Shown piece by piece: positions 11,117-61,856 of a stretch of DNA of 64,000 nucleotides. The stretch is taken from the NCBI GenBank assembly GCA_002717225.1, contig PBDG01000009.1:76563-140562 (forward strand). Reading direction: 5' to 3'. The stretch comes from Rhodospirillaceae bacterium (lineage in GTDB: Bacteria; Pseudomonadota; Alphaproteobacteria; UBA828). A model generated the notes under the pieces. The model had not been told where the DNA came from. It made no database searches and saw nothing but the letters and a program-made list of their open reading frames with translations. A program made the translations under genes and the position numbers. Each line of letters begins with the position of its first letter. The first letter of the stretch is position 1.

Positions 11117-11134
11117 ACAGTAGGAGAAAGAGAT

Positions 11135-12934: not shown

Positions 12935-12953
12935 AGAGCCGAAAGTACAGGCG

Positions 12954-28930: not shown

Positions 28931-28949
28931 GGTCCTCTTCTCCTTCTCT

Positions 28950-31004: not shown

Positions 31005-31274
31005 TTAAGTCGCCCCTCCCGAAAAACATCGTGAACACTGTAAAATTGATGGTATTTGCAATAGCTTCTCCCCACACTTCAACTCTTCAAAAGGTCTCTA
31101 GGTTAGCAAATTTTGCGGTAACTTAGTATCCGACACAGAGCATGTCCACGACAACACTCATTAATAATTTAATGTTTTTCCACGCTCGACAAGTGCGGTT
31201 ACATACGGCAAGAATTTACGGCTGGCCGACTGCGGCCACAAATTATTTTGATGTCAGAGCGAAAGAGGTGCCGC

Positions 31275-33386: not shown

Positions 33387-33396
33387 GGATACAATT

Positions 33397-37468: not shown

Positions 37469-40400
37469 CTACCGGTTTGCTGATTCTACCTTCGAGTTAA
37501 CATCGACGGCCAGTTGTCGTGCGACAAGCGTGGCATAAAGACCGCCTCTGGCGAGAAGACTGGCATGATCGCCTGCTTCTCGCACCTTACCATCCTCCAT
37601 AACGACGATCTGATCTGCATCACGCACAGTCGACAACCGGTGGGCTATAACAACGGTAGTGCGATCGACCATAAGCTCATCAAGAGCATGGCGCACAGCT
37701 TGCTCATTTAGCGCATCAAGATGCGAGGTAGCTTCGTCAAGAATAAGTATCGGTGCGTCCTTAAGGAAGGCACGAGCAATAGCGATTCGCTGGCGCTGAC
37801 CACCAGAAAGCCGCGTGCCGCGTTCGCCGACCTCCGTATCGAGGCCGTCAGGGAGGGCAGCTGTGAAATCCTCCAGCGCCGCACGGCGGATGGCGGCATC
37901 CACCTCGGTAGGACTCGCCTCCGGCCGAGCGATCAGTATATTGCCCCGGATGGTGTCGTTGAAGAGATAAGTGTCCTGAGCTACGAGGGCGATACGCCCG
38001 CGTAAATCATCGAGCCGCCACTCCTTGAGGTCCCGGCCATTCAGATTGACTACGCCTTCATCAGGATCCCAAAAACGCATCAAAAGATGAGCTAGCGTCG
38101 TCTTGCCCGCACCGGACGGCCCAACCAGAGCGAGTGTGCTTCCCGCCGACAAACTAAGGCTAACATTGTGGAGTGCTGGATCTCTAATGCCAGGATAGGT
38201 GAAGCTAACATTGTTGAGATCCAGTGCCGCACTGCCACTATGCGCCTCGGGCGCTATCGCCCTACCGTCGGTTACCGTCACTCGCTCGCTATGTACACCA
38301 TGCAATCGCCTTGTGCCGCCGAGGGTATCAGCAAGCTGACGGCCGATATTGGCAATTTCCGATACTGGGAGGAAAGCAGCCATGGCCAAGAGTGTGAGAA
38401 GCGGTAGCATGGTACGATCCAAATCGCCCGAATTCACCAAGGACGCGCCAGTGATGACCACGGCAAGGCCACCGAGGCCCGTGACTGTCTCTACTAGCGC
38501 GGTTTGGACTGTGAGATCGCTGAAAAATGGCAGCCGAAGCGAATGGTGGCGGCGCACCAAGTCAATCAATTGTTTGCCGCGTCGTGCCTCCTGTCGAAAA
38601 GCCATAATTTCCGCCAGGCCCTGCAGAGTATCGACCATATGGGCGTTTAGTGCTCCCTGCGCCTCACTCGCACCTGAGGCAAGCCGATCAACCCGCTTGC
38701 GCATGAGAAACGGCGAAAGTGCGATCAATGCAAGGAAAGGGACCAACGCAATGGCCATTGGCCAACCGAAAAAGAGGACCACGGCAACCACCGCGGCTGG
38801 AACTAACACCGCGACAAATGCAGGAGCTACGGTATGAGCAAAAAAGAATTCGACATTCTCGATATCTTGGGTCGCCATAGCCACCAAATCACCGCTTCGT
38901 CGGCGCAAGAGATAAGCCGGCGCTAAAGCGTCAAGCTTGGCGAATAACGCGATGCGCATTTGTGTCAACAAGCGGAACGCCATGTCATGCGCGACCCAAG
39001 ATTCAAGCCAATGGAGGATGCCAGCAAAAGGTGCAAGGGCGTATAACGCGATCAGGAGATCACCAAACTGCTCACCATTGCGTACCGCTGCCACGACGAA
39101 AGCGCTTAACACACCCACACCGATCAGAGCTACCACACGGGCAACACCGAGAAGGAAAGCGAGGCCGACGCGCTTGCGCACCGGATGGACGAGGTGCAAA
39201 AGCAATCCGGCAGCACGCCACCAACCCATCTCACCAGCGCGTAATATCTCATCGGACGGCTGTAGCCGGTCTAACTGCATATCCTCGAGTGGCGACGCAG
39301 TTGCGTCTGGTGCAACATTCACTGTGGTTACATTTTTGATCTTATTTACACCGGAGACCGCCTCCTCCACCTGGCCTGACATCAATCGAGCATAGACACC
39401 ACTCTTTTTCATAAGCGATTGGTGGCTACCCTCTTCAACCAGTGCACCCTCATAGAGCACCAGGATACGGTCTGCATCAATCACGCTGGATAAGCGATGA
39501 GCAAGAATCAAAACGGTCCGACCATGCATCAACCGGTCGAGGGCCTGTTGAATGACCGCTTCGTTTTCCGCATCCACGGCCGAAAGAGCTTCATCGAGCA
39601 CCAGAAAGGGCGCATCACGCAAAAGCGCCCGAGCGATAGCGATTCGCTGACGTTGGCCTCCCGAAAGCCTAACGCCGCGTTCACCAATCACCGTCTTATA
39701 GCCTTGAGGCAAGCGCAAGATGAAATCATGCGCATTGGCGGCACGCGTTGCTGCTTCGATTTCCTCATCGGTTGCGTCTGGCTTACCAAAGCGAATGTTT
39801 TCTTCTGCAGTACCGTGAAACAGGTAGGTGTCTTGGTGCACCACGGCAAAATGCTCACGGATTTGGGCAAAACTGAGGTCACGAAGATCCTTACCACCAA
39901 GGAAAACGCGCCCGTTCTCGGGCTCGTAGAGTCTGAGTGCAAGGCGAACGATAGAGGATTTTCCACATCCACTCGGGCCAACTATACCGATGCGTTCGCC
40001 AGCCTTAATCTCGAAGCTAAGGTCCCGGTGCGCAGGCTTCCGACCGCCAGGATACGAAAAGCATACGCCCTCAAAGCGAAGCGAAGCCTCCAGTCCTCCC
40101 TTTGGCAGCAGAGCGTTTGGTGTGTCACACACCAGGGGTTTCTCGCCGAGAAGCGCGAACAGGCCTTCAGCAGCCGACTGACCGAGCATACCTTGATGCA
40201 ACAGGATTCGGAGATCACGCATTGGGCGGAACAGTTCGATCCCCATCATGAGAACAATTAGCAGCACGCCAATGTCTATTTCTCCGTCCACCACCCTCCA
40301 GGCGCCAATGCTTAGCGCCAGTGCCGCACCTATAGCGATACCACCATCAGTAATACCGCGCGACAGCGAATTGGTTGCCAGTACCCACATGGTGCGCCGG

Positions 40401-41086
40401 AAAAGGTCATGCGCTTTAGCGGTGAGTTCAGCTGCACGTGCGCTGCTTTGGCCAAAAGACTTAAGCGTGCCAAGACCCTGCACCGAATCAAGAAATTCTG
40501 CACCATAGACGGAATATGAGCGTTGCCGTGCCTGGGCGGCAGCACGGTCAAAACGGTGGAAAGCAGCGGGCGCAATTAGCGTGAAAACGGCGAAACCGAA
40601 CATTGCGCCAGCGAGCGATAGATCTAAAAATGCCATAAAAATAAAGATGCCAATGGGTGTCAGAGCGGCGACGCAAAGCTGCGGTAGATACTGGCCAAAA
40701 TAAGTCTCGAGTTGTTCAACCCCGTCAATCAAGGTAAGGAGAGTAGACCCGGTACGCTTACGCCCAAAAAAGGCTGGGCCAAGGGCAATGACGTGCTCAT
40801 AAAGCCTGCGACGGAGCTCAACCTGCACCGTCGCAGCGGTGCGATGAGCCATCATGTTACGGGCATATTCCAACAATCCGCGTAACACCATCACGGCAGC
40901 TGTGAGCGCGAAAGGTAGGATCAGTTCGCCGATTGGCTGACCGACAAAGACCTTGCTGAGTAGCCAACCCAACAGCGCCAATCGAGCCACTCCTGAAGCC
41001 GCTGCCAGCAGGCCAAGAGCGACGGATGCAGCGATGCGTAGGCGCACGCCCTTAGTGAAGGTCCAGAGCCGGTGGTCGAGATACAT
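37469..41086 (-). CDS. Fused double ABC exporter (TMD-NBD-TMD-NBD, 1205 aa), CydD-CydC-like
   Basis: Two complete half-transporters in one ORF: two 6-TM regions, two Walker A motifs (GPSGCGKSS, GPSGAGKTT), and two signatures LSGGQRQRIAIARA. The N-terminal half resembles CydD and the C-terminal half CydC. Confidence 0.8.
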   Translation of the reverse strand: MYLDHRLWTFTKGVRLRIAASVALGLLAAASGVARLALLGWLLSKVFVGQPIGELILPFALTAAVMVLRGLLEYARNMMAHRTAATVQVELRRRLYEHVIALGPAFFGRKRTGSTLLTLIDGVEQLETYFGQYLPQLCVAALTPIGIFIFMAFLDLSLAGAMFGFAVFTLIAPAAFHRFDRAAAQARQRSYSVYGAEFLDSVQGLGTLKSFGQSSARAAELTAKAHDLFRRTMWVLATNSLSRGITDGGIAIGAALALSIGAWRVVDGEIDIGVLLIVLMMGIELFRPMRDLRILLHQGMLGQSAAEGLFALLGEKPLVCDTPNALLPKGGLEASLRFEGVCFSYPGGRKPAHRDLSFEIKAGERIGIVGPSGCGKSSIVRLALRLYEPENGRVFLGGKDLRDLSFAQIREHFAVVHQDTYLFHGTAEENIRFGKPDATDEEIEAATRAANAHDFILRLPQGYKTVIGERGVRLSGGQRQRIAIARALLRDAPFLVLDEALSAVDAENEAVIQQALDRLMHGRTVLILAHRLSSVIDADRILVLYEGALVEEGSHQSLMKKSGVYARLMSGQVEEAVSGVNKIKNVTTVNVAPDATASPLEDMQLDRLQPSDEILRAGEMGWWRAAGLLLHLVHPVRKRVGLAFLLGVARVVALIGVGVLSAFVVAAVRNGEQFGDLLIALYALAPFAGILHWLESWVAHDMAFRLLTQMRIALFAKLDALAPAYLLRRRSGDLVAMATQDIENVEFFFAHTVAPAFVAVLVPAAVVAVVLFFGWPMAIALVPFLALIALSPFLMRKRVDRLASGASEAQGALNAHMVDTLQGLAEIMAFRQEARRGKQLIDLVRRHHSLRLPFFSDLTVQTALVETVTGLGGLAVVITGASLVNSGDLDRTMLPLLTLLAMAAFLPVSEIANIGRQLADTLGGTRRLHGVHSERVTVTDGRAIAPEAHSGSAALDLNNVSFTYPGIRDPALHNVSLSLSAGSTLALVGPSGAGKTTLAHLLMRFWDPDEGVVNLNGRDLKEWRLDDLRGRIALVAQDTYLFNDTIRGNILIARPEASPTEVDAAIRRAALEDFTAALPDGLDTEVGERGTRLSGGQRQRIAIARAFLKDAPILILDEATSHLDALNEQAVRHALDELMVDRTTVVIAHRLSTVRDADQIVVMEDGKVREAGDHASLLARGGLYATLVARQLAVDVNSKVESANR

Positions 41087-48493: not shown

Positions 48494-49507
48494 ATGGAAT
48501 ATCTTTTCGGCGACCCACCGGACCCAGGCGCGGTAAAAGAGATTGCCCCTGGCCTCCAGTGGCTGCGCATGCCACTCCCAATGGCACTCGATCATATTAA
48601 TCTCTGGCTAATCGAGGATGGTTCGGGCTGGACCTTAATTGACACCGGCCTATACAGCGGTTTGTCTCAAAAACTTTGGCGCAATGTGCTCAACAATCTC
48701 CTCGGCGGGCGGCCTCTGACACGGGTAATCTGCACCCATTTTCACCCCGATCACGTTGGGATGGCGGGCTGGCTTGTGGAAGAGACCGGCGCAGAATTTT
48801 GGATGGCGCGTGAGGAATGGCTTTACGCCAGAGTTCTGGCAATAGATACGGGCGAACACTTTACCGATGCCATGGTGGCGCATTACCACCGCGCCGGAGG
48901 TAGCCCGGAATATCTTGCCAAGCTTCGTGAACGAGGAGCATTTTTCTCGGGCATCGTCTCGGAAGTGCCCCGCAGCATTCAGCGTATTCGCGACGGCGAC
49001 GCATTCAAGATCGGTGGGAAGCAGTGGCACGTAGTAGTTGGCAACGGCCACGCCCCGGAGCACACTTGTCTGCTTTCGAGAGAACTCGGTTTATTTATTT
49101 CGGGCGATATAGTCTTGCCACGCATTTCACCACACATTGGCGTCTATGCGGACGAGCCCGACGGCAATCCACTGAGGGACTATTTAGAGACTCTGGAAAA
49201 ATTTCACGCGTTGCCGGACGATGCTATCGTCTTGCCATCGCATAACGAGCCTTTCCGCGGCCTGCACAAGCGTCTCAGCGAACTGCAACAGCATCATGCC
49301 GAGCGGCTCAAAGAATTTTCTCACGCCTGCGTCACGCCAGCGACCGCCCTCGACGTTGCGAAACAGGTGTTCGCACGGCGCCTAGATTCGGCGCAACTCG
49401 GCTTCGCCATCGCTGAGACAGTCGCGCACCTCAATTACCTGATTGCTGACGAGCAGATCAAACGCCGAACCAATGAAGATGGCGTCTATCTCTACCAAAA
49501 AATCTAA
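48494..49507 (+). CDS. MBL-fold metallo-hydrolase
   Basis: ICTHFHPDHVGMAGW (HxHxDH) and downstream His/Asp ligands. Start re-assigned to ATG 48494, which has a GAGGAG SD. The track ORF began inside an AT-rich promoter region. Confidence 0.75.
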   Translation: MEYLFGDPPDPGAVKEIAPGLQWLRMPLPMALDHINLWLIEDGSGWTLIDTGLYSGLSQKLWRNVLNNLLGGRPLTRVICTHFHPDHVGMAGWLVEETGAEFWMAREEWLYARVLAIDTGEHFTDAMVAHYHRAGGSPEYLAKLRERGAFFSGIVSEVPRSIQRIRDGDAFKIGGKQWHVVVGNGHAPEHTCLLSRELGLFISGDIVLPRISPHIGVYADEPDGNPLRDYLETLEKFHALPDDAIVLPSHNEPFRGLHKRLSELQQHHAERLKEFSHACVTPATALDVAKQVFARRLDSAQLGFAIAETVAHLNYLIADEQIKRRTNEDGVYLYQKI

Positions 49508-50661
49508 AAACCCAGATAACGATCGACCATATCTCGCAGAATTAGTGCGGCATCAACCATTTGATCAAGCGGAACATACTCGTTGGCGGCATGACTTGTA
49601 GCGCCGTCACCTGGGCCGAAATTACAGATCTCGATCTCATCATCGGCGAAATAACGCCCCTCGCTAACCGCCAGCGCATTAACAAAATTCGGAGCTAAAC
49701 CACGGCGGGCTTCAATAGCGGCGGCAAGCGCTGCGATACCAGGACCATCTTTTTTTGGCGAGAAACCGTTGGTGCCAGTCAGAAATTCTGTTGAAAAACT
49801 TTCGGGCGGCTCATTCACATCAGCAAGAATTTCCACTACCTCATCGTAGGCGGCGCAGACATCCTCTTCAGGTAACAGGCGACGGTCGATCTCAAGCCAG
49901 CACGAACTTGGCACGACATTAACATTATGCCCGCCCTGAATCCGCCCGATGTTCATCGTCGAACGCTTCTCGCCATTGACGCGTTTTTCGAGACGCGGCT
50001 CAAGCACCCGGCGCAAATGATCAACCAGGCGCATCATACGAAGAATTGCGTTATCTCCAGCTTGCGGATCACCGCCATGAGCGGCACGTCCTGTCACAGT
50101 TATACGCAGCCAGAGAACGCCGCGCTCCTCGGTGATGAGCTCGTTTTGCGTCGGCCCGCCGACCAGCAAGAAATCCGGCCTGAGCGCATCCGATTCGCGC
50201 AAAAAGCGCATGCCATTTGGACCAAGCCTCTCCTCGTCGCCAGTGAATGTGAAGACAACCTCACCCTTCTTGGGGCCGCCTCGACGCATTATCTCCTCGC
50301 CGAGCCAGATATGAAGTGCCGTAGATCCTTTGCAATTATTGGCACCGAGGCCGTAGATCGCGCCATTGCGCTTAACAGCTTCAAAGGGATCGCTCAGCCA
50401 ATCACCGAGATCACCAACTTCTACCGTATCGATATGACAGTTGAATCCAAACTGTGGCGACCCTGTGCCAACGCGGGCCACGAGATTGTCAATGCTAGGG
50501 GCGCAGCTCTTGGTTTCGCAGATGTAACCAGCGGACTCAAAGCGAGCGCGAATATAAGCGCACATTTTCCTTGTGTCACCCGGTGGATAGGTTGAAGGTA
50601 TGCCGATAAGGTCGCCCAAGATATCGGTCAGTTCGTGTGTGAGTTTGGCTTCGCTCGTCAT
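49504..50661 (-). CDS. M20-family metallopeptidase / deacylase (ArgE/DapE-like)
   Basis: 385 aa with M20 catalytic and dimerisation blocks (...HIDTVEVGD..., ...GANNCKGS..., ...EEIMRRGG...). Confidence 0.8.
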   Translation of the reverse strand: MTSEAKLTHELTDILGDLIGIPSTYPPGDTRKMCAYIRARFESAGYICETKSCAPSIDNLVARVGTGSPQFGFNCHIDTVEVGDLGDWLSDPFEAVKRNGAIYGLGANNCKGSTALHIWLGEEIMRRGGPKKGEVVFTFTGDEERLGPNGMRFLRESDALRPDFLLVGGPTQNELITEERGVLWLRITVTGRAAHGGDPQAGDNAILRMMRLVDHLRRVLEPRLEKRVNGEKRSTMNIGRIQGGHNVNVVPSSCWLEIDRRLLPEEDVCAAYDEVVEILADVNEPPESFSTEFLTGTNGFSPKKDGPGIAALAAAIEARRGLAPNFVNALAVSEGRYFADDEIEICNFGPGDGATSHAANEYVPLDQMVDAALILRDMVDRYLGF

Positions 50662-50938
50662 AGGTCGGGGAGAGTGGTTTCGACTGGTTCAGGCGGGAGC
50701 ATAGACACGATAAACGAAGAGATGCAGAAAATTTTGACTGATTAGCCACGAATTGAACTACCGATCTATCTCCACCAAGCAAAGTAAGGCCAACTAATTC
50801 CCGTATTTATCTCTGTCGCAGTTTGCTTGGGAAAATGCACAATCTTTAGCAAAGACACAAAGTTTTAGCGGTTTTCTGGGACAAATCCACAATTCATTTA
50901 AGGAAACTTTATTCCTTAAATTCAATTGCACGGAACGT

Positions 50939-50966
50939 GGCGAGGGGCTAGTCTCGCGCCCTCGCC
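50939..50966 (+). promoter_or_regulatory. Stem-loop GGCGAGGG-N12-CCCTCGCC in the 5' leader, 23 nt upstream of the amidotransferase start codon
   Basis: Read directly: ggcgaggg gctagtctcgcg ccctcgcc is an 8-bp perfect stem. It is followed by the GAAGGGG SD and the ATG at 50989, and lies inside a 330-bp AT-rich leader. Confidence 0.3.
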
Positions 50967-50988
50967 AAATCGGCGAAGGGGAATATCT

Positions 50989-51909
50989 ATGTGCGGAATC
51001 GCAGGCATCATGTTCAAAAATGGTCGAACTGACCATGAAACGGGCGTGGCGCTAATCGATATGCTCGATGGCTGCCAACACAGGGGTCCGGATTCCACGG
51101 GCTTTGCGCTCTATGGCGAAGAACACACGAGCGAGCTCAAGTTACGCTTTCTTATTGGAGACGGCACCGCGGCCGATGACTCCGTCGAACTGATCAAGAG
51201 TGCGCTGGAGGATCATGATGCGGAAATCGTCGACGATATGCGCATCGGCAACAATTATCAGGCGCTGGTGCGCTTTAACGGCGATCTACGCAGCTTTGCC
51301 TATGCGATGGAACACGCGGCGCCCGATGCTAAAGTCATCTCCATCGGACAGAGCCTAGATATCGTCAAAGATGTGGGCGGCGCCCATGATGTAGATGACC
51401 GCTTCGACGTACATAACTTTAAAGGCAGCCATGGCCTCGGCCATGTGCGCCTCGCCACCGAATCGGATGTCCGCCCGGAATCAGCGCACCCTTTCTGGGC
51501 TACTGGTTTTTCCGACGTCGCCATCGTCCATAACGGCCAGATCACCAATTATTGGAAGATGCGCCGCCGGCTTGAGCAACGCGGATTTGAATTCCGCACC
51601 GACAATGATAGTGAATTAGTTGCTGTCTATCTTGCCGACAAAATGTCCCAGGGAGTGCCTCTGCGCGAAGCCCTAAAAGCTTCGATTGAAGATTTGGACG
51701 GCACTTTTTCCTTCCTCGTCTCGACCAAGGACGAAATCGGCTATGCCAAGGATAATCTCGCCGCGAAACCGATGGTCATGTACGAAACCGACGACCTCAT
51801 CGCCATCGCTTCGGAAGAAGTGTCCCTTAATCGCCTGTTTCCGGGCCACGCACTGAACACCAAGGAGCCCCCGCCGGGGAGCTATGATACATGGTCCAAA
51901 TCGACCTAG
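50989..51909 (+). CDS. Class-II (Ntn) glutamine amidotransferase, GlxB/MgsA-like subunit of a split glutamate-synthase-like enzyme
   Basis: The mature N-terminus after Met is CGIAGI, the class-II GATase nucleophile Cys. The size is about 306 aa. Start set at ATG 50989. Confidence 0.8.
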   Translation: MCGIAGIMFKNGRTDHETGVALIDMLDGCQHRGPDSTGFALYGEEHTSELKLRFLIGDGTAADDSVELIKSALEDHDAEIVDDMRIGNNYQALVRFNGDLRSFAYAMEHAAPDAKVISIGQSLDIVKDVGGAHDVDDRFDVHNFKGSHGLGHVRLATESDVRPESAHPFWATGFSDVAIVHNGQITNYWKMRRRLEQRGFEFRTDNDSELVAVYLADKMSQGVPLREALKASIEDLDGTFSFLVSTKDEIGYAKDNLAAKPMVMYETDDLIAIASEEVSLNRLFPGHALNTKEPPPGSYDTWSKST

Positions 51910-53843
51910 CGGAAATTCCAGTCCGCCAGGCCAACGAACTTATCCGCAAATATGGGGCCGACGGCGAGGATATTGATATAATTAACCCCGACGCGCGACA
52001 TCACGTCGGCGTAGGGTTGACCGACCCAGTGACTGTGCGCGTGCACGGGTCCGCAGGTTATTTCTGCGCTGGCTTGACCGATGCGGCCCACTTCGAGATT
52101 GAAAGCAACGTCGGCTGGGGCCTTGGCGACAATATGTATACAGGCTCTGTTATCGTTGGCGGAAATGCCAGCGCAATCGCCGGCGTGGCGATACGCGGCG
52201 CCGAAATTGTCATCAAAGGCAATATGGGATCGCGCGCCGGACAAGTAATGAAAGCGGGCACACTCTTGTGCTGTGGCAATGCAAATTTTATGGCCGGCTA
52301 TCTCATGTATGGCGGGCGCATCATCATCCTGGGCGATTCCGGCGAACGCGTCGGTGAAGATATGGCCGCCGGTGAGATTTATGTCGGTGGAAAGGTTCAG
52401 TCGCTTGGCTCCGATGCCAAAATGGGCGATACGGAAAGCAGCAAAATTGACGAGCTACGCGCCTTTCTCGACCGTTACAAGATTACCTTTAATGGCGATT
52501 TCCAGAAAATTGTCAACGAAGGCAAAAAGCTGCATTACAAAACCTCAGAACGGCCGATGCGCAGCCTTCCCTTTGTCGGATTCTCGGGAAAATCGGATTA
52601 CTGGAACCCGAAAATTCAGGAAGATATTCATATAAAATCACAGATTGGCCGCTATCGCGTACGTGGTTATGGCGGTGCGCGGGAACTGCCACACCTGGCA
52701 GATATCGGATTCGCGCGGAATATCTCCGGGTTAAATGAGATTTCCAACCCGGTGTCCAAGGTCGAGATGCGCACGCTGATCGGCGGCAAACACGGGGCGC
52801 AACCGCTCGACCTTTCAATGCCGGTGATGATCGCGCCAATGAGCTATGGCGCGTTGAGCCGTTCCACCAAACAAGCCATCGGTATCGCCTCATCGCTCGC
52901 AGGAATCGCGGAAAATACCGGTGAAGGTGGTATGAGCGACGCCCAGCGTGGTGCCGCGGAGCAATTGGTTTTCCAAATGCTTGGTGGACGGCTTGGTTGG
53001 AACATCCATGATATGAAACGCGCCAATGGGTTGGAGATCTATATTAGCCAGGGCGCCAAGCCCGGCTTCGGCGGTCAGCTCATGGCGAAAAAGGTGACCA
53101 AGGAACTAGCCGAAATTCGAGGTATCCCCCAAGGCATCGATCTGCGCTCACCATCGCGGCATCCGGATATTCTGGGCGGCGACGATCTCCTCATCAAGGT
53201 CGAGGAAATGCGCGAAGCAACAGGATATCGTTTGCCGGTCAGCGTCAAGCTAGGCGCCGGACGGGTGCGCGACGACATCAAGATCGCTTACAAGGATGGC
53301 TTCGATTTTGTCGAGCTCGACGGCATGCAGGGCTCAACCGGTGCCGGTGGCGCAGAAGTCATGGAATATGTTGGCATTCCCACTATCTCAGCGATCATGG
53401 ACGCGCTTGATGGTCTGGCGGAGATCGACGCCGACGGCAAAATTCAAATCATTCTCATGGGTGGTCTGCGCGACGGCGTGGACGCAGTCAAATCGCTTTG
53501 TCTCGGCGCCGATGCGGTGGCCTTTGGCAACGCCACGATCATCGCCGGCGGTTGCATTTCCTGCATGCAGTGCCATGTTGGTCAGTGTGTGACCGGCATC
53601 GCAACCCAGGACCCCGAGCATGAGAAGCGCTACCGCCCGGAAATCGAAGCGCATAATATCCACCGCTTTCTCGAAGGAGTGCGCTGGCAGATCGCAGCGC
53701 TGACCCACGCACTCGGCTATGGAGATGTCAAATCTCTCAACCGGGACGACCTCGTCGCCCTGACCCCAGAGGCGGCGGAGATCACGCGCCTTCCCTACCG
53801 GCCAGAGCTTCGCGAACAACAGCATCTCAGCAAGGCAGTCTAA
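51891..53843 (+). CDS. Fusion protein: GXGXG-repeat domain (N-terminal, GlxC/GltB C-terminal-domain-like) + glutamate-synthase FMN/Fe-S central domain (GlxD/GltB domain-2-like)
   Basis: N-terminal 230 aa has G-rich beta-helix repeats (VIVGGNASAIAG..., VIKGNMGSRAGQV..., LCCGNANFMAGY..., IILGDSGERVGED..., IYVGGKV). The C-terminal 420 aa has NTGEGG, QGAKPGFGGQL, DGMQGSTGAGG, and the 3Fe-4S motif C-x5-C-x4-C followed by VTGIATQDP. Confidence 0.8.
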   Translation: MVQIDLAEIPVRQANELIRKYGADGEDIDIINPDARHHVGVGLTDPVTVRVHGSAGYFCAGLTDAAHFEIESNVGWGLGDNMYTGSVIVGGNASAIAGVAIRGAEIVIKGNMGSRAGQVMKAGTLLCCGNANFMAGYLMYGGRIIILGDSGERVGEDMAAGEIYVGGKVQSLGSDAKMGDTESSKIDELRAFLDRYKITFNGDFQKIVNEGKKLHYKTSERPMRSLPFVGFSGKSDYWNPKIQEDIHIKSQIGRYRVRGYGGARELPHLADIGFARNISGLNEISNPVSKVEMRTLIGGKHGAQPLDLSMPVMIAPMSYGALSRSTKQAIGIASSLAGIAENTGEGGMSDAQRGAAEQLVFQMLGGRLGWNIHDMKRANGLEIYISQGAKPGFGGQLMAKKVTKELAEIRGIPQGIDLRSPSRHPDILGGDDLLIKVEEMREATGYRLPVSVKLGAGRVRDDIKIAYKDGFDFVELDGMQGSTGAGGAEVMEYVGIPTISAIMDALDGLAEIDADGKIQIILMGGLRDGVDAVKSLCLGADAVAFGNATIIAGGCISCMQCHVGQCVTGIATQDPEHEKRYRPEIEAHNIHRFLEGVRWQIAALTHALGYGDVKSLNRDDLVALTPEAAEITRLPYRPELREQQHLSKAV

Positions 53844-53844
53844 G

Positions 53845-56376
53845 TTGGCAGCGAGTAAAGACAGCGGAGTGGAAGCTCCCATGCTTCTTCCGGCTGAAAT
53901 GCCGGACGATACGGACGACCTGCATTTTGTCCCTGCACCCTGCCAGGTGGCCTGCCCTGTCGGAACCGACGCGCCTTCCTATATAGCCTATATATGGGAA
54001 GGCAAATATGAGGAAGCGTTCGAGGCGATTACCGCTACCAACCCATTCAGCTCGATTTGCGGACGGGTGTGCGATGCCCCATGCGAACCTGCCTGCAGAC
54101 GGGTACAATCAGATGGGCCCGTGCAAATCCGCAATCTCAAGCGTTACGTCATGGATGAAATTGGCGACCGGCTCGATCCGCCTCCCGTGCCAGTCACCCA
54201 GAAAGAGACGGTGGCCATCGTCGGGTCCGGACCGGCCGGCTTAGTCGCCGCGCATGATTTGTCGATCGCCGGCTATGAAGTCCACGTCTACGAGATGACC
54301 GACCGGCTAGGTGGAATGATGATATGGGGCATCCCCGCTTTCCGCTTGCCACCCGGCGTGATTGACGAAGACATTCAGCGCCTAACCAAGCGCTGTCCTG
54401 GCCTCAAGATTCACCTCAACACTGCGCTGGGCGATGGTGTGACACTGGAGGAACTAAAGGAGCGCCATGACGCCGTGGTGCTCGCCATTGGCTCCTGGTG
54501 GGGCAAAAAGATGGGAATTCCGGGAGACACCGACACGCGGGTCATCGACGGCGTGCAGTTCCTGCGTGACGTCAATGCTGGCGCACGGCCGGAAATGCCG
54601 GAAACCGTGGTCGTGGTCGGCGGCGGGGACGTCGCCATGGACGCCTGCCGAGTCGCCAAGAGACTTCCTGGCTGCAAGCACGTCAAAGTGATCTATCGTC
54701 GGGGGCCGGACGAGATTCCGGCGCGCGCCATTGAGCTTGAGGGGGCCGTCAAAGAGGATATCGAATTCATCTACAACACCCAACAAACCGCCGTTTCTCC
54801 AAAGGGCAACCAGCTCGCCATCACCTGCCTTAAAACCGAGTTGGGTGAACCAGACGAAGAAGGCCGGCGCGTTCCAGTCGAGATAGTGGGCAGCGAGCAC
54901 GAGATTGAATGCGGTATGATCATTGCCTCGATCGGCCAGCAGGGCAAATGTGCTCATCTCGACGAGAAAGGCATGATGCTGAGTGATCGCGTGCGGACAG
55001 AATGGGGCAGTATGTTGACCGACGACCCAAAAGTCTTCGCCGCCGGCGACGGCGCTTTCGGCGGATCAACTATCGTCATGGCCATGCATCACGGTCAACG
55101 CGTCGCTTATTACGTGAAGGCGTTTCTCGAAGGCCATAGGGACCCTATGCCCTACCGCCAACCCTTCCGCACCCGACGGGTGCCTCTGGCGCAGGATCTC
55201 GAGTGGGAGAAGCTGCCGTTACAAGAACCCGCCTTTCACGGGCTAGGCGCCAATCCGATCGAGTTCCCCGAGATCGAAGATACTTATGGCAGCGACACGG
55301 CACGCAATGAGGCAGCGCGCTGCTATCGCTGCGACGCAGAGACTGGTACTGCTGACTATTCCGTGCGCCACCGCGAGGACATTTTCACCATGGCGCGCAC
55401 CAACCCACTCGACGAGCGTTCGCATGCCACAATGCTTGCGCGCCGCTTGCAGCCGCGCGATAACCCTTTTCCAGACCACCGAAAGGCCACGCTGGACGAT
55501 CTCATCTTTCTGCCAGCCAATCTGACCCGACTGGTGATTGACCCCTACCGCGAGGCATGCCGAATTGACACGGAACTCGGCGCCGGACGCTTCGTTATGG
55601 AGCAACCCTTTATCGCTACCGGATTCGACGACGCACCAGGTCAAGTACGTGAAGCCATTGCCGAGGGCCTAAAGGATTTTGACACTCCCTATCTCGGAGT
55701 ACGCGCTCTTTCAACGGATGTTCCCTGGCTGCAACTGGTCGTGCCGGGGCAGATCGCACCGAGCACTGACGCGGCGGCGCAGATTCATAACCTAGGTCAC
55801 GAATTTCGACCGATTGAGACGACGCGTCTGACAGAAAACCAACTTCTTGGCTTGTCGGTTTCCTCTCCCGACATACTGGAAGAAACGATCTCTTATGCCC
55901 TGGCGAAGAAATTTGATATACTCCTCCTCGACGGCAGCGGCGGCCTCGGCACGCCCTGGGCCGAGCTCTCCGGTGAACCCAATCTAACCATCCTGCGCGA
56001 CGCCGTCGCTATTCTCAGACGTATTGGGCGAGAGGAAGAGATCGACCTGATTTTTTTCGGTGGTGTTCGCTCGGGCACTGATACGGCTAAGCTGGTAGCG
56101 CTCGGTAGCATGGCGGTGGTGCTTGGCGTTACCCTGGGACTGGCCGCTGGAGCTGAAATTAGAGACCGGCACGACATGCAATTCTCCGCCGATCGTGACA
56201 AAAATGATCGCGCCGAAGCGGTGGCCCATATTCTTAATGCTAGCGCCCAAGAAGCGTCGATGATGGCGCGGTGCACCGGCAAGACCAATCTGCAAAACGT
56301 CGAGCCGGAGGATTTGCGCGCAATTACCATCGCCACCGCCAAAGCCACCGGTATCCCGCTCGCCGGCACGCTTTGA
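53845..56376 (+). CDS. Fusion protein: GltD-like NAD(P)H:flavin/Fe-S oxidoreductase (N-terminal, about 470 aa) + degenerate second glutamate-synthase-like TIM-barrel domain (C-terminal, about 370 aa)
   Basis: N-terminal Cys-rich block ...CQVACPVGTDAP...ICGRVCDAPCEPACRR..., then IVGSGPAGLVAAHDL (FAD) and VVGGGDVAMDACRVA (NADPH). The C-terminal half has LDDLIFLPANLTR, ILLLDGSGGLGTPW and IFFGGVRSGTDTAKLVALGSMAVVLG, but lacks the NTGEGG and QGAKPG motifs. Confidence 0.8.
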   Translation: MAASKDSGVEAPMLLPAEMPDDTDDLHFVPAPCQVACPVGTDAPSYIAYIWEGKYEEAFEAITATNPFSSICGRVCDAPCEPACRRVQSDGPVQIRNLKRYVMDEIGDRLDPPPVPVTQKETVAIVGSGPAGLVAAHDLSIAGYEVHVYEMTDRLGGMMIWGIPAFRLPPGVIDEDIQRLTKRCPGLKIHLNTALGDGVTLEELKERHDAVVLAIGSWWGKKMGIPGDTDTRVIDGVQFLRDVNAGARPEMPETVVVVGGGDVAMDACRVAKRLPGCKHVKVIYRRGPDEIPARAIELEGAVKEDIEFIYNTQQTAVSPKGNQLAITCLKTELGEPDEEGRRVPVEIVGSEHEIECGMIIASIGQQGKCAHLDEKGMMLSDRVRTEWGSMLTDDPKVFAAGDGAFGGSTIVMAMHHGQRVAYYVKAFLEGHRDPMPYRQPFRTRRVPLAQDLEWEKLPLQEPAFHGLGANPIEFPEIEDTYGSDTARNEAARCYRCDAETGTADYSVRHREDIFTMARTNPLDERSHATMLARRLQPRDNPFPDHRKATLDDLIFLPANLTRLVIDPYREACRIDTELGAGRFVMEQPFIATGFDDAPGQVREAIAEGLKDFDTPYLGVRALSTDVPWLQLVVPGQIAPSTDAAAQIHNLGHEFRPIETTRLTENQLLGLSVSSPDILEETISYALAKKFDILLLDGSGGLGTPWAELSGEPNLTILRDAVAILRRIGREEEIDLIFFGGVRSGTDTAKLVALGSMAVVLGVTLGLAAGAEIRDRHDMQFSADRDKNDRAEAVAHILNASAQEASMMARCTGKTNLQNVEPEDLRAITIATAKATGIPLAGTL

Positions 56377-56380
56377 CTTC

Positions 56381-56416
56381 AACGGGCCATGAGAACAACC
56401 CGTTATATGCTGTTTT
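56381..56416 (+). terminator. Candidate intrinsic terminator (AACGGG-N12-CCCGTT hairpin followed by a T-rich tract)
   Basis: Read directly: aacgggccatgagaacaacccgtt atatgctgttttg lies 5 nt after the stop of the 843-aa gene. The stem is only 6 bp and the U-tract is interrupted. Confidence 0.3.
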
Positions 56417-56565
56417 GAGCGCCAGGTACCCGCTTCTCCGCAATTGGCCTATTCCGTAACAACTCGACAGCACCGTCGGGCTTGCCGGAATGTCTTCCGT
56501 CTTTCGGTTAATGGAAGCTCTGCTGCGATTTCCTTGCGGCAAATAAACAACTAAACTCCAGCAGC

Positions 56566-57852
56566 ATGGATATATCGCTCAATTACGGTAAAACCCAACT
56601 TGTCGTAACGCTACCGGATGACCTTGAAGTCCGTGTCATCCGCAAGCCTGACATGCCGCTCCTGGATGATCCGGTGGCAACACTCGAAGCCTCGTTTGCC
56701 AAGCCAGACGGCGGCCCAAATCTCGCCTATCTTGCCAGAAAAGCACAAACAGCCTGTATTCTCATTTGCGACATCACACGCCCAGTGCCAAACAGTGTAT
56801 TGCTGCCACCGCTCCTCCGTGCGCTTCTCGCTGCCGGGCTAGGCAGGGAAAACATCGTTATTCTCGTCGCCACCGGTCTGCACCGGCCAAATGAAGACGA
56901 GGAGCTGGCCGAGTTGGTCGGTGATCCCTGGGTGATGGAGAATTTTGCCGTCGTCAATCATTTTGCCCGCGACGATGCCTCACATGTTTCACTCGGACGC
57001 ACAAGGAGTGGAACAAAAGTCATGCTAGATAAACGCTTCGTAGAAGCGGACCTCCGCATCGCCACTGGTCTAGTAGAGCCCCATTTCATGGCTGGCTGGT
57101 CCGGTGGGCGCAAGGTGATCGCGCCGGGAGTCGCCCATGCCGAGACCATTACCACCTTCCACAGCGCAAGGTTTATGGAGCATCCTAATTGCGCCAATTG
57201 CGTGCTCGACGGCAATCCGCTGCATGACGAACAACTTGAAATTATCGCCATGTTAGGCTGCGTCAGTGCGATCAATGTAGTGATCAATGAGGATCGTCGT
57301 ATTTCAATGATTAATTTCGGTGAGGTAGTAAAAAGCCATATGGCAGCGGTAGATCATGTCCGCACCTATGCCGAAGTCCCAATGCCGGAGCGCTTCTCCA
57401 CCGTGATTACCAGCGCCGCGGGCTACCCCCTCGACAAGACCTACTATCAAACAGTGAAAGGCATGGTCGGTCCGCTAGATATCCTGAAGCCTGGTGGAAC
57501 TCTCGTCATTGCCTCGGCCTGTTCCGAAGGCATGGGCTCGGCGGAATATATCACCTCCCAACGTAATCTGATGAATATGGGCGCTGATCGCTTCCTCAAA
57601 CATATCGAGTCTAAAAGTCACGCAGCGGTCGATGAATGGCAGACCGAGATGCTTTTGAAACCGCTTCGCTCGGGCCAAGTGGTTCTCTACACTGAAGGCC
57701 TAACGGAAGAGGAACTCTCCCTTACCGCCGTGAAACCCACCACCTCAATTGACCAAGCAATAGTTGCAGCAGTCGCTGACGCTAACGACAAGCGCATAGC
57801 GGTTATTCCGGAAGGGCCCTATGTGGTTCCACGATACCGGCCCGGGATTTGA
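56566..57852 (+). CDS. LarA-family (nickel-pincer-nucleotide-dependent lactate racemase-like, DUF2088) protein
   Basis: The N-terminal domain matches LarA blocks: ...ILICDITRPVPNSVLLPPLL..., ...VILVATGLHRP..., ...VNHFARDD..., ...ATGLVEPHFMAGWSGGRKVIAPGVA.... The last block carries the cofactor-tethering Lys and the catalytic His region. Length 428 aa. Confidence 0.75.
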   Translation: MDISLNYGKTQLVVTLPDDLEVRVIRKPDMPLLDDPVATLEASFAKPDGGPNLAYLARKAQTACILICDITRPVPNSVLLPPLLRALLAAGLGRENIVILVATGLHRPNEDEELAELVGDPWVMENFAVVNHFARDDASHVSLGRTRSGTKVMLDKRFVEADLRIATGLVEPHFMAGWSGGRKVIAPGVAHAETITTFHSARFMEHPNCANCVLDGNPLHDEQLEIIAMLGCVSAINVVINEDRRISMINFGEVVKSHMAAVDHVRTYAEVPMPERFSTVITSAAGYPLDKTYYQTVKGMVGPLDILKPGGTLVIASACSEGMGSAEYITSQRNLMNMGADRFLKHIESKSHAAVDEWQTEMLLKPLRSGQVVLYTEGLTEEELSLTAVKPTTSIDQAIVAAVADANDKRIAVIPEGPYVVPRYRPGI

Positions 57853-59402
57853 CAACGCCCGACCCCTCTGGCGGAGGACCGCTGCCGCCTAACCGTTTCA
57901 CTAATATTTGCGTTCTAGTAGCGACGGTGTGTGGCTCAAGTCTTGCAATTATTGATGCCACCGCCATTAACGTCGCCCTTCCAGCCATTCAAGACGGACT
58001 CAATGCAGATATCACCTCACTGCAATGGGTGATCGAGTCCTATGCGCTGTTCCTCGGCGCCTTAATTCTGGTCGGTGGTGTGTTGGGTGACCATTTCGGA
58101 CGAAAGCGGATGTTTGCCATCGGTGTCATCATCTTTGCCTCCGCTTCCGCCTGGTGTGGCCTAGCTGAGGGCGTGATGCAATTGATCGTCGCTCGCGGCT
58201 TTCAAGGCATTGGTGCGGCGCTCGTAGTGCCCGGCAGTCTAGCGCTGTTGAGCGCCCATTTCCCACAAGAGCAACGGGGCCCGGCAATTGGACAATGGGC
58301 TTCGTTCACAACACTCGCTATCGTTCTCGGGCCGTTATTGGGCGGGGTACTTGTAGACACGGCGTCGTGGCGTTGGGTTTTTTTTATTAACCTGCCCATT
58401 GCTGCTATTCTGCTTTTCGTGCTTTATCTCGGCGTACCGGAAAGCCGAAATGAGAGCCAGGCAGGCAAACTCGACATTGTAGGCGCCGCATTCATCACCC
58501 TCGGCTTGGGCGGCTTGGTGTTCGGCCTGCTCGAATCCGCGCACTTGGGCTTTAGCGCGCTTGAGGTATGGGGCTCTATAACGGCGGGCATAGTGATCAT
58601 ACTTGCCTTCATTTACCGACAAATGACTGTGAAATTCCCTATGCTGCCGCTCGACCTGTTTCGCTCCCGCGCCTTTTCCGGCGCTAATATTATGACATTC
58701 CTGCTCTATGGCGCGATGACAGGCTGTCTATTTTTCCTTCCCTTCAACCTAATGCAGGTACACGGATGGAGCGCGACGGAAGCCGGTGCCGCGCTGCTAC
58801 CACTTATCTTGCTTATCTCCCTCTTCTCTCTTGCCGCCAGTAAACTGGTGGCTAAGCTCGGTCAACGCATACCGCTCACCAGTGGTGCATGCATCGCCGC
58901 ACTGGGATTTGCACTCCTCGCCTTGCCTAGCAACGACAGCGGCTATTGGTCTGGCTTCCTGCCAGGCATAGCCGTACTTGGGCTAGGTCTTGGAATCGCC
59001 GTGGCGCCCCTCACCATCGTCGTTATGGGGGCAGTGCCGACCGATCGCTCCGGCCTCGCTTCAGGTGTCAACAATGCAGCTTCGCGCGTCGCCATGTTGA
59101 TGGCAGTGGCAATTTTCGGGGTAGTAATGTTTGAGATCTTTTCAAGTCAGTTACAGAGTGCGCTTCAGGTCATGCCGCTTGACAACGCCAGCCGGATACA
59201 AATCTCGGAACGCATGGTGCACCTATCGGGCCTGCAGCCACCGGATGGTCTTAAAGCCAACGTGGCGGAACAACTGCATGTCGCGGTCGGCGAGTCCTTC
59301 GTCGCCGGCTTTCGGGCTGTCTCTCTAATCGCTGCAGGTGCAGCGCTTGCCGGTGGCCTAATTGCCGGATTAACGATTCCGCCGCGCGCGGATGTGAAGT
59401 AG
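57849..59402 (+). CDS. MFS transporter, 14-TM DHA2 (EmrB/QacA-like) family
   Basis: 517 aa with 14 predicted hydrophobic segments and the GDHFGRKRM motif-A-like loop. It overlaps the LarA-like stop by ATGA. Confidence 0.8.
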   Translation: MTTPDPSGGGPLPPNRFTNICVLVATVCGSSLAIIDATAINVALPAIQDGLNADITSLQWVIESYALFLGALILVGGVLGDHFGRKRMFAIGVIIFASASAWCGLAEGVMQLIVARGFQGIGAALVVPGSLALLSAHFPQEQRGPAIGQWASFTTLAIVLGPLLGGVLVDTASWRWVFFINLPIAAILLFVLYLGVPESRNESQAGKLDIVGAAFITLGLGGLVFGLLESAHLGFSALEVWGSITAGIVIILAFIYRQMTVKFPMLPLDLFRSRAFSGANIMTFLLYGAMTGCLFFLPFNLMQVHGWSATEAGAALLPLILLISLFSLAASKLVAKLGQRIPLTSGACIAALGFALLALPSNDSGYWSGFLPGIAVLGLGLGIAVAPLTIVVMGAVPTDRSGLASGVNNAASRVAMLMAVAIFGVVMFEIFSSQLQSALQVMPLDNASRIQISERMVHLSGLQPPDGLKANVAEQLHVAVGESFVAGFRAVSLIAAGAALAGGLIAGLTIPPRADVK

Positions 59403-59411
59403 TCTCATGAT

Positions 59412-60962
59412 ATGCGCACGCCCTTGATGGATTTGGACAGAGCCCACTTCGACGTCGTAGTGATCGGCGCCGGGGTCAATGGCGCAAGCACGACACAGCA
59501 TCTTGCCGCCGCCGGCTTCACTACACTTCTCGTAGAGCAGAATGATTTCGCCTCCGGCTCCTCGAGCCGCTCCAGCCGCCTATTGCATTGCGGCCTCCGT
59601 TATCTTGCACCGGGCTGCTCCATGTGGGAGTTCGCCTTTCATCCGAACCGCCTGATAACGGCGCTCTCCATGGCGCGCCAAGCGATGGAGTCACGCAGCC
59701 AAATGGTGCGCGAAACACCCGAGCGCGTACGATCGATGACCTTCTCCTATCCAATCTATAAGGAATCACCTTATGCGCCGTGGCAGATTGATCTCGCCTT
59801 CAACATATTGAAAGCACTCGGGCCGAAGGACGTACCACTCGACTATCGCCGCCTCAACCGCTCGGAGGCACACACCCGGCCACTTCTGCAATGGCTAAGG
59901 GATATGGATGCCCTCAAGGGTATCGCCCAGTTCCGCGAATATCGTTTCGAATGGCCTGAGCGAATTGCTCTCGATACGGTGCTCGATGCCGCCCGGCTAG
60001 GTGCGCAAGTCCGTAACCATACGGCTTTACGAGGGGTTGAGCGTGAGGCCGATGGTAATTGGCGGCTTACCTTGGCAGATAAGCTGGCGACGGAAGAAGT
60101 GACCGTAACGGCAACAGCGTTGGTCAACACTGCCGGTATCTGGATCGATAGGGTCAATCGCATGGCCGATAGCAATGTGGGACGGCGTATCACCGGCACA
60201 AAGGGCATCCATTGTATGTTCCGCCTGCCGGCGAACTGCGCTGATCAAGGAATCGCCAGCATGAACCGTGACGACGAACCGTTTTACTGCGTCCCCTGGC
60301 GCGGACTCCACTATGTCGGGCCAACGGAAACCCTCTACGACGGCAATATCGACGATATTCACCCAGAAGAAGAAGAAATTGAATGGCTCCTGGATGAGGC
60401 CAACCACCTATTACCAGGAGCTGAATTCAAGCGAGAAAAAATGCTGTTCGCCTGGGCCGGCGTACGGCCGCTCACTTACGATCCAGCGCAACCCAAAGGC
60501 GCCAGGAGCCGTGAATTGCACGATCTGTCGGGCGAAGGCTTCGATAATCTTTTTGCATTGACTGCCGGGCCGATCATGACCCATCGCTCGGCTGGCGAAC
60601 TTCTGACCAAGCATGTCGCGAAGCGGGTACGCCCCTCTGGCACGCCGGGTAGGCTAAGCTTCAGCGCAAAAACCTATCCCGACAACACTAATTCGCTGGC
60701 CATCGACGATGCATGGCCGGAAACGACCTTCGCTGATCTCAACCACGCGGTGGCCCATGAGCTACCCGCCAATCTAATCGATCTTCTGTTCCGCCGCACC
60801 GGCAATGGCTGGACCGCCTCAATGGGCGCACCCATGGCCGAGCAGGCAGCACGCCAGGTAGCGGAGCAAATGGGCTGGGACGAAGCGCGAATCCAGGCCG
60901 AAACTCAAGCCTATAAGGATTACGTCGCACGCAATCACCTATGGCACGGCGCGAATGATTGA
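59412..60962 (+). CDS. FAD-dependent oxidoreductase of the glycerol-3-phosphate dehydrogenase (GlpD/GlpA) family
   Basis: DVVVIGAGVNGASTTQHLAAAGF (FAD Rossmann fold) and SSRSSRLLHCGLRYL, a near-exact GlpD-family signature. Length 516 aa. Confidence 0.8.
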   Translation: MRTPLMDLDRAHFDVVVIGAGVNGASTTQHLAAAGFTTLLVEQNDFASGSSSRSSRLLHCGLRYLAPGCSMWEFAFHPNRLITALSMARQAMESRSQMVRETPERVRSMTFSYPIYKESPYAPWQIDLAFNILKALGPKDVPLDYRRLNRSEAHTRPLLQWLRDMDALKGIAQFREYRFEWPERIALDTVLDAARLGAQVRNHTALRGVEREADGNWRLTLADKLATEEVTVTATALVNTAGIWIDRVNRMADSNVGRRITGTKGIHCMFRLPANCADQGIASMNRDDEPFYCVPWRGLHYVGPTETLYDGNIDDIHPEEEEIEWLLDEANHLLPGAEFKREKMLFAWAGVRPLTYDPAQPKGARSRELHDLSGEGFDNLFALTAGPIMTHRSAGELLTKHVAKRVRPSGTPGRLSFSAKTYPDNTNSLAIDDAWPETTFADLNHAVAHELPANLIDLLFRRTGNGWTASMGAPMAEQAARQVAEQMGWDEARIQAETQAYKDYVARNHLWHGAND

Positions 60963-61856
60963 TTAGACCGGCGCAAACTCGCTGTCGCCATCGAGTTCAC
61001 CGTCACAGGTCGCGCGGCCAGTCTCGACCATATGAATTAGATGGGCTAATACCGAGCGCGCAGCAGCGGCGTGCAGCACCGGGTCAACATCGGCGTAGAT
61101 CAACCGCACCATCTCTGGGATGCGGCTGATGCCATCATCCAGACATTTGCCGATCTGCACCTCGCGGGCCTCGCGGTGATTAATCAGTGCGGCAATAAAT
61201 GTCCCCGGTGATTCGATTGCTGGCCCATGGGTCGGCCATAAGCGAATCTCTGCGCGCCCAGCGAGGCGCCGGCAAGAGGCTAAGTAATCCGCCATACTAC
61301 CATCTGGCGGCGAGACCACCGTGGTCGACCAGCCCATCACATGATCTCCGGAAAACAAAACCTGCTCCTCTTCGAGCGCGAAACACAGATGATTCGAGGT
61401 GTGCCCCGGAGTATGAATCGCCTCGAGGGTCCAACCGGAGCCTGAAATCACATCACCATCTCCAACAAAAATATCTGGCGCGAAGTCGCGATCAGCCCCC
61501 TCCTCGACTTCTTCACCTGTTCGCCCCCCACCATGAGGTCCGAAGCCGTAACTTTTTGCGCCGGTAATTTCCTGCATATAACGCACCGCTGGCGAATGAT
61601 CGCGATGGGTGTGGGTCACCAATAAGTGACTAACCGTCTCGCCCTTAATTGCACCCAAGAGCGCCTCGACATGCGGTGTCAAATCTGGTCCAGCATCGAC
61701 AACCGCCACCTCGCCACGACCAACGATATAAGTGCCGGTGCCATAAAAAGTAAAAGGCCCCGGATTATTGGCAACGACACGGCGGATCAGCGGGGATAGC
61801 GTGTCGCAAACACCATAAGTGAAATCGAGCTCACGCTTAAACGGGATGCCAGCCAT
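60963..61856 (-). CDS. MBL-fold metallo-hydrolase (hydroxyacylglutathione-hydrolase-like)
   Basis: LLVTHTHRDHSPA (HxHxDH) motif. Length 297 aa. Confidence 0.75.
   Translation of the reverse strand: MAGIPFKRELDFTYGVCDTLSPLIRRVVANNPGPFTFYGTGTYIVGRGEVAVVDAGPDLTPHVEALLGAIKGETVSHLLVTHTHRDHSPAVRYMQEITGAKSYGFGPHGGGRTGEEVEEGADRDFAPDIFVGDGDVISGSGWTLEAIHTPGHTSNHLCFALEEEQVLFSGDHVMGWSTTVVSPPDGSMADYLASCRRLAGRAEIRLWPTHGPAIESPGTFIAALINHREAREVQIGKCLDDGISRIPEMVRLIYADVDPVLHAAAARSVLAHLIHMVETGRATCDGELDGDSEFAPV

Follow-up and report, generated by a model that had tools for sequence, protein, structure and literature searches.

A LarA-family gene behind a conserved glutamate-synthase-like gene trio in a marine Rhodospirillaceae genome

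The stretch of DNA analysed here, referred to as the window, comprises 64,000 nucleotides from the metagenome-assembled genome (MAG) of a marine Rhodospirillaceae bacterium (GCA_002717225.1, contig PBDG01000009.1, positions 76,563 to 140,562), and our subject is a LarA-family gene at positions 56566..57852 of its forward strand. Read along that strand, the locus consists of a class-II glutamine-amidotransferase-like gene, a gene fusing a GXGXG domain to a flavin mononucleotide (FMN) domain, a GltD-like gene, a 190-bp gap, the LarA gene itself, a gene for a major facilitator superfamily (MFS) transporter and a GlpD-like gene; we refer to the first three of these as the trio. The LarA gene has an ATG start and encodes 428 amino acids (aa), its product being a predicted nickel-pincer-nucleotide-dependent 2-hydroxy-acid racemase of a LarAH2/Sar-like lineage, and its NCBI counterpart of identical sequence (MBI05682.1, locus tag CMM54_01735, on a contig of 165 kb) is annotated as "hypothetical protein". 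As we show below, the linkage between this gene and the trio is conserved and real, and it has gone unreported.

An earlier sequence-only reading of the window had assigned this gene to the LarA family, an assignment that is confirmed by its domains and by full-length matches to solved structures. Pfam recognises Lar_N at residues 7-208 (E 6.7e-57) and LarA_C at residues 279-420 (E 5.1e-21), both above the gathering score, and the protein has the architecture of the LarA superfamily, namely Lar_N plus LarA_C in about 420-430 aa. The top solved structure is the LarA of Isosphaera pallida (9eia/9eif/9eid; E 6e-108, residues 3-426), after which come lactate racemases from Thermoanaerobacterium and from L. 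plantarum (5huq, E 4e-54, for the latter) and the malate racemase Mar2; sequence identity is 43% with I. pallida Sar and 30% with L. plantarum LarA. Purifying selection acts on the gene: its ratio of nonsynonymous to synonymous substitution rates (dN/dS) is about 0.10 in the marine clade, where the relatives compared are 89% and 78% identical, and 0.17-0.24 among soil-clade loci, with similar values for its neighbours in the window (0.105 for the MFS gene and 0.08 for the GlpD-like gene). Judged by its sequence, it encodes an intact, full-length LarA-family enzyme, a new member of a widespread, uniform and uncharacterised subgroup found in Alphaproteobacteria, Burkholderiales, Methylomirabilota, Acidimicrobiia and others.

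To place the residues of the active site, we used an alignment of the window protein with L. plantarum LarA, I. pallida Sar and a Mahella homolog (Dataset S2, Desguin et al. 2020), along with homologs from related loci, and positions are given in L. plantarum numbering. The motif blocks ATGLHRP and EPHFMAGWSGGRK are both found and carry His108, His174 and Lys184, and the equivalents of Asp72, Arg75, His200, Tyr294, Gln295 and Lys298 are likewise present. With residue roles taken from the literature, this amounts to both catalytic histidines (His108 and His174), the cofactor-tethering Lys184, the Ni-ligand His200 and Arg75, together with Tyr294, Gln295, Lys298 and Asp72, which anchor the carboxylate and hydroxyl of the substrate as described for the I. 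pallida enzyme (LarA_Ip). The sequence-only reading had considered the cofactor blocks intact and had expected the protein to need the nickel-pincer cofactor; the blocks are indeed intact, the His108, Lys184 and His200 equivalents that it had singled out are all there, and the expectation is thereby supported. The whole set (D72, R75, H108, H174, K184, H200, Y294, Q295, K298) is kept in 78 of the 79 other aligned homologs, and His174 is invariant in 79/79. The sole homolog of the 80 with an Arg at the catalytic His108 position comes from a Candidatus Acidoferrum MAG (L068), and this Arg could be a sequencing error or mark a single-histidine variant.

The pocket also gives some indication of the substrate class. 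At the specificity positions 175/176/358/359 the window protein has F-M-W-Q, which agrees with the published four-position signature of the LarAH2/Sar group, L/F-M-W-Q/E (Desguin et al. 2020, Dataset S2); of the other groups, lactate racemases have F-F-W-E/Q according to the literature, 2-hydroxyglutarate racemases have Y-F-H/Q-T and malate racemases have H/Q-K at 358/359. We rejected a malate racemase (LarAH5/6), given the W-Q at 358/359 and scores under cutoff in the NCBIfam malate-racemase models, and also a 2-hydroxyglutarate racemase (LarAH7), given F-M-W-Q in place of Y-F-H/Q-T. F-M-W-Q is common to LarA homologs linked to the trio, to those linked to lar cofactor genes and to others, with Phe at 176 in two of the lar-linked ones (L045 and L082). 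The most likely substrate, as far as these residues can tell, would be a small aliphatic or hydroxylated 2-hydroxy acid.

Among characterised enzymes, the closest is I. pallida LarA (also LarAH2, Sar or LarA_Ip), a broad-spectrum racemase of short-chain 2-hydroxy acids that binds its cofactor covalently and is reported to prefer lactate and 2-hydroxybutyrate. It shares with the window protein the two domains, an alignment over the full length, all of the cofactor-binding, catalytic and carboxylate/hydroxyl-binding residues, and M-W-Q at 176/358/359; the two differ at position 175 (F in the window, L in I. pallida), at 353/360/362 (A/T/M against F/L/E) and in gene context. In view of the 43% identity and these pocket differences, the window protein is best regarded as representing a sister subgroup of Sar rather than a member of it. 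L. plantarum LarA (5huq, 6c1w) belongs to the same family and has the mechanism-defining His108, His174, Lys184 and His200 in common with it, but differs in having F rather than M at 176 and T rather than Q at 359, in the low identity given above and in belonging to a lar operon, whereas the window gene lies outside any. Known LarA-family enzymes are, according to the literature, only stand-alone racemases or epimerases of 2-hydroxy acids, and their physiological roles are mostly unclear.

The enzymes of this family depend on a cofactor made by the products of larB, larC and larE, and the sequence-only reading had remarked that none of these genes occurs in the window. Our searches agree: a Pfam scan of all open reading frames (ORFs) of >=150 aa in the 64-kb window returned no AIRC, Ni_insertion or LarE-type protein, and a tblastn search of the window with LarC, LarE and LarB from the loci of two relatives, confirmed beforehand to score above the NCBIfam cutoffs, gave a best match of only E = 0.088. 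This absence is unremarkable, since lar biosynthesis genes lie <=10 kb from LarA in just 21 of the 80 closest homolog loci, one per GTDB species (59/80 have none within that radius), and in a published context table the share of LarA homologs with such neighbours is only about 28-64%, varying by group. A lack of cofactor genes near LarA is thus ordinary for the family. Where they do occur, the LarA homolog stands directly beside larC-larE-larB and is 56-65% identical to the window protein with nearly the same active-site signature, so that the subfamily does use the nickel-pincer cofactor. Examples are the uncharacterised orthologs of Arboricoccus pini (L052), Inquilinus ginsengisoli (L083) and Reyranella (L070), in the same range of identity, which nearly share the window signature D-R-H-H-F-M-K-H-L-Y-Q-V-K-A-V/I-D-W-Q-T-M, but which differ from the window gene in being neighbours of the cofactor biosynthesis genes and in having no glutamate-synthase-like neighbours.

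We compared gene neighbourhoods by tblastn of the window proteins against 80 genome loci and seven loci obtained by exact-protein look-up; in the high-GC soil loci, long antisense ORFs swamped a naive clustering of ORFs, and homology tables and the gene calls of the collection were used instead. In 21 of the 80 species the trio immediately precedes LarA on the same strand; all of these are Alphaproteobacteria-type MAGs with a LarA 64-89% identical to that of the window, and the same order was found in 11 metagenome loci. What follows LarA is far less constant. The GlpD-like gene occurs there only in the marine subclade (LarA >=77% identical), and neither L007, a 67% relative, nor any of the soil-clade loci has it; the MFS gene is shared by the marine clade and L007, where it is 49% identical. 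Both are replaced in the soil clade by a gene of the aldehyde-ferredoxin-oxidoreductase family (611 aa) and a small ThiS/MoaD-like gene (for example at 11468-13545 of L088, with equivalents in L019, L020, L022, L027, L031, L034 and L035). The linkage to LarA has thus persisted as marine and soil lineages diversified, even as other genes came to follow LarA. The published context tables for the LarA family do not list it. Other than larC-larE-larB, the LarA subfamily has no dominant partner, although an Ldh_2-family dehydrogenase gene lies upstream of LarA in eight loci, and a D-2-hydroxy-acid dehydrogenase (2-Hacid_dh) and a TcuA-like flavoprotein are encoded near LarA in locus L006. These dehydrogenase neighbours fit the general pattern of a racemase beside a stereospecific dehydrogenase, a pattern that does not identify the substrate.

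The same question can be asked from the side of the trio. Using an alignment of the GXGXG-FMN protein to scan metagenome contigs (loci L089-L168), we found the three trio genes always together, as a module that is widespread in marine metagenomes. Of the 47 metagenome trio loci with >=4.2 kb of downstream sequence, 11 have LarA and 36 lack it. The fourth position is taken in about 21-24 metagenome trio loci by a 435-aa glutamine-synthetase-like gene, with ammonium-transporter, FMO-like and helix-turn-helix (HTH)-cupin genes nearby. By annotation, these synthetase-linked trios can be likened to the glxB/glxD/glnT-type clusters of Ca. Pelagibacter ubique, which have similar amidotransferase, glutamate-synthase-like and glutamine-synthetase-like parts; the window differs from those clusters in that LarA stands in the place of the synthetase-like gene. 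A neighbour-joining tree built on the GXGXG-FMN protein gathers the LarA-linked trios in one major clade, with 32 LarA-linked members and 2 without LarA despite enough downstream sequence (L107 and L115), and the synthetase-linked and other trios make up the remainder of the tree. Linkage to LarA is therefore a stable trait of one trio subfamily.

As for the trio itself, its first gene (50989..51909, + strand) encodes a class-II, or N-terminal nucleophile (Ntn), glutamine-amidotransferase-like protein of 306 aa with Pfam GATase_6/GATase_7. The mechanical ORF begins at a TTG at 50926, but homologs of 303-306 aa begin at the equivalent of the ATG at 50989, which yields MCGIAG with an N-terminal catalytic Cys, and this ATG is the likely true start. 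The second gene (51891..53843, +; 650 aa) encodes the fusion of GXGXG (residues 35-185) and Glu_synthase (residues 302-610, E 8e-89), with residues 315-629 aligning with the FMN domain of GltB in solved structures; an invariant C-x2-C-x2-C-x4-C in the FMN domain (C555/C558/C561/C566, window 53553-53588) suggests an iron-sulphur (Fe-S) cluster. The third gene (53845..56376, +; 843 aa) encodes a GltD/NfnB-like Fe-S flavoprotein (Pfam Fer4_20 and Pyr_redox_2) whose GltD-like module has solved-structure matches over residues 31-505 and which carries an additional C-terminal TIM barrel of FMN type at residues about 505-843 (~340 aa, window 55312-56376), modelled at a predicted local distance difference test (pLDDT) score of 88.8. 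In Foldseek and profile searches, this barrel finds its top matches not in GltB but in flavocytochrome b2, L-lactate oxidase and hydroxy-acid oxidases. We do not claim it as an L-hydroxy-acid dehydrogenase, given that the catalytic His/Arg motif NHGGRQ aligns to DGSGGL. Because this motif is replaced and because the domain also occurs in trios without LarA, the resemblance carries little weight as a hint of a link between LarA and the trio. Neither can the trio be equated with bacterial GltBD, where amidotransferase, central domain, FMN domain and GXGXG follow one another in a single subunit that is joined by a GltD of ~480 aa: here the 306-aa amidotransferase is separate, the GXGXG domain comes before the FMN domain, a central domain was not detected, the GltD-like protein is 843 aa long with its additional barrel, and the NCBIfam GltB/GltD scores of the trio proteins are all under cutoff.

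Between the trio and LarA lies the gap of 190 bp (56377..56565, + strand). A consensus scan of 50600-61100 placed no promoter-like site in it and one weak terminator-like site (56486-56499) that is within chance expectation; over the scanned region as a whole, promoter-like sites were fewer than in shuffled sequence and terminator-like sites were at chance level. In three relatives (L004, L007 and L088) the same junction measures only 15-44 bp. On the other side, the MFS gene (57849..59402, +; 517 aa) begins at a predicted TTG in a 4-base overlap with the LarA stop codon and encodes a transporter of the DHA2/EmrB type (Pfam MFS_1 E 4e-53; NCBIfam efflux_EmrB 251 bits, cutoff 230). The next gene (59412..60962, +; 516 aa) encodes a GlpD/GlpO-family flavin adenine dinucleotide (FAD) oxidoreductase with Pfam DAO and DAO_C, which falls below all NCBIfam GlpD/GlpA/GlpO cutoffs and was rejected as a bona fide GlpD (148 bits against a cutoff of 360); its solved relatives, glycerol-3-phosphate dehydrogenase 3da1 being the best (E 4e-36) and 2qcu another, indicate family-level similarity only and act on glycerol-3-phosphate rather than on 2-hydroxy acids.

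Taken as a whole, we think it probable that the window encodes a working LarA racemase of a small 2-hydroxy acid, with its cofactor genes elsewhere in the genome, and that the gene was inherited as the fourth one behind the trio. The enzyme would bind the nickel-pincer nucleotide covalently at the Lys184 equivalent and would racemise a small 2-hydroxy acid, of the lactate, 2-hydroxybutyrate or glycerate class, its D and L forms being interconverted by transient transfer of a hydride to the cofactor, which would be supplied by larB, larC and larE genes that we assume to be encoded elsewhere in the genome. In one clade of trios LarA would have been passed on as the fourth gene, with the MFS and GlpD-family genes following it in the marine lineage, and its likely role would be to make both enantiomers of the hydroxy acid usable for the nitrogen- and carbon-handling pathway of the cluster. 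Several observations weigh against this. The best NCBIfam model, the lactate-racemase equivalog NF033504, scores 361.6 bits against a cutoff of 460, so that the substrate can only be predicted, and the malate-racemase and LarAH10 models too are under cutoff. At positions 353/360/362, the window has A/T/M where the Sar group has F or V, L or V, and E or K. None of larB, larC and larE was found <=10 kb from any trio-linked LarA (about 30 loci). The 190-bp gap allows for separate transcription of LarA. Finally, the trio occurs mostly without LarA and LarA mostly without the trio; across the wider families neither needs the other, and their adjacency could reflect inheritance without a shared pathway.

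This last point is at the heart of an alternative that we regard as less likely, though by no means negligible, namely that LarA, the MFS gene and, in the window, the GlpD-like gene form an independent unit for uptake and utilisation of a hydroxy acid, which was merely co-inherited downstream of the trio. The contrast between the gap before LarA and the 4-bp overlap after it is in keeping with such a unit, as are the identical active-site signatures of trio-linked and non-linked LarA proteins and the many lineages in which either partner does without the other. Furthermore, all trio-linked cases fall in one trio clade, so that a single ancestral juxtaposition suffices to explain them. On the other hand, the junction has survived in both marine and soil lineages, down to 64% identity in LarA and 76% in the GXGXG-FMN protein, even though the genes downstream were replaced, the gap is much shorter in the three relatives mentioned above, and the tree puts only two loci with enough sequence after the trio, yet no LarA, in the LarA-linked clade. 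If the linkage reflects no shared pathway, what remains is an ordinary racemase gene with its cofactor genes elsewhere; if it does reflect one, abundant bacteria of sea and soil would couple nickel-pincer chemistry to the metabolism of amino groups, and LarA would also offer a handle on the uncharacterised trio of amidotransferase, GXGXG-FMN and GltD-like proteins.

More specific schemes fare worse. The sequence-only reading had placed LarA between an aminating system and the GlpD-like gene and had proposed a three-step module in which LarA racemises a 2-hydroxy acid, the GlpD-like enzyme oxidises one enantiomer and the trio aminates the resulting 2-oxo acid with amide nitrogen and NAD(P)H. 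The trio does lie upstream, but the MFS gene separates LarA from the GlpD-like gene, and the module itself, which we hold to be unlikely, is not supported: the GlpD-like gene is restricted to the marine subclade, being missing from L007 and from every soil-clade trio-LarA locus, and the trio is self-standing, 36 of the 47 metagenome loci counted above being without LarA and many of them having the glutamine-synthetase-like gene in its place. It is true that all of the parts lie on one strand with short gaps or overlaps after LarA, that the trio has the Ntn amidotransferase, synthase-type FMN domain and GltD-like reductase such a scheme calls for, and that racemase genes beside those of stereospecific dehydrogenases recur in the loci with Ldh_2 or 2-Hacid_dh. 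However, the GlpD-like protein belongs to the glycerol-3-phosphate dehydrogenase/oxidase family and not to the 2-hydroxy-acid dehydrogenases, LarA homologs of the same signature mostly adjoin larC-larE-larB or unrelated genes in other species, and the signature is unlike that of the 2-hydroxyglutarate racemases, which makes 2-oxoglutarate an unlikely link to the trio. A looser metabolic link between LarA and the trio is possible. One could imagine, for instance, LarA as the dedicated partner of one trio subfamily, in the operon slot that a sister subfamily gives to its glutamine-synthetase-like ligase, and serving the interconversion of 2-hydroxy acids and amino acids. In this picture LarA would bring the enantiomers into equilibrium, and the L-form would be oxidised to a 2-oxo acid at an FMN site within the complex, for which the C-terminal TIM barrel of the GltD-like protein is the candidate; the amidotransferase/synthase pair would then aminate the product. 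We consider this improbable; if true, nickel-pincer chemistry would for the first time be connected with nitrogen assimilation. Lastly, the lineage could lack larBCE altogether, with a LarA that is inactive or uses a different cofactor or chemistry. Besides the missing lar genes in the window and around the trio-linked loci, a search with the LarC of L005 bears on this, since among the matches listed (best 120) there was no LarC on the large trio-LarA contigs; the search is uninformative, however, as those matches are all ~50% identical. An orphan enzyme is in our opinion very unlikely, given that the Lys that tethers the cofactor, the His that binds nickel and the two catalytic His residues are intact, that the gene is under purifying selection, and that non-adjacent lar genes are common in the LarA family according to the published context table.

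The remainder of the window contains several further features. Divergent from the trio lies a gene for an M20 deacylase of the ArgE/DapE family (49504..50661, - strand; Pfam Peptidase_M20 and M20_dimer; NCBIfam DapE-ArgE 223 bits, cutoff 217.6), which is usually found upstream of trio-LarA pairs; 13 loci of the soil clade have it at 56-60% identity, and it also occurs in four locus records of the marine clade (L001, L002 and L008, which represent one relative, and L012). Upstream of the trio there are also divergent genes for a Liv-type ABC transporter and for a protein with a metallo-beta-lactamase fold. At 26915-35688 the window has two divergent pairs of genes for hydantoinase/oxoprolinase A and B, the second B protein having an acetone-carboxylase-gamma-like C-terminal domain, and a Hydantoinase_B gene also stands just upstream of the trio in L007. 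A fused ABC exporter of 1205 aa, with two membrane and two ATPase domains, is encoded at 37469-41086 (- strand) and is 64% identical to an exporter of L006 (3552-7169) that lies 3 kb from the LarA homolog of that locus, with gamma-glutamyltranspeptidase genes nearby; this likeness may be a coincidence. Finally, a cluster of the fatty-acid beta-oxidation type at 5887-14500 comprises genes for an acyl-CoA synthetase, a thiolase, a fusion of 3-hydroxyacyl-CoA dehydrogenase and enoyl-CoA hydratase, an acyl-CoA dehydrogenase and two CoA-transferase subunits.

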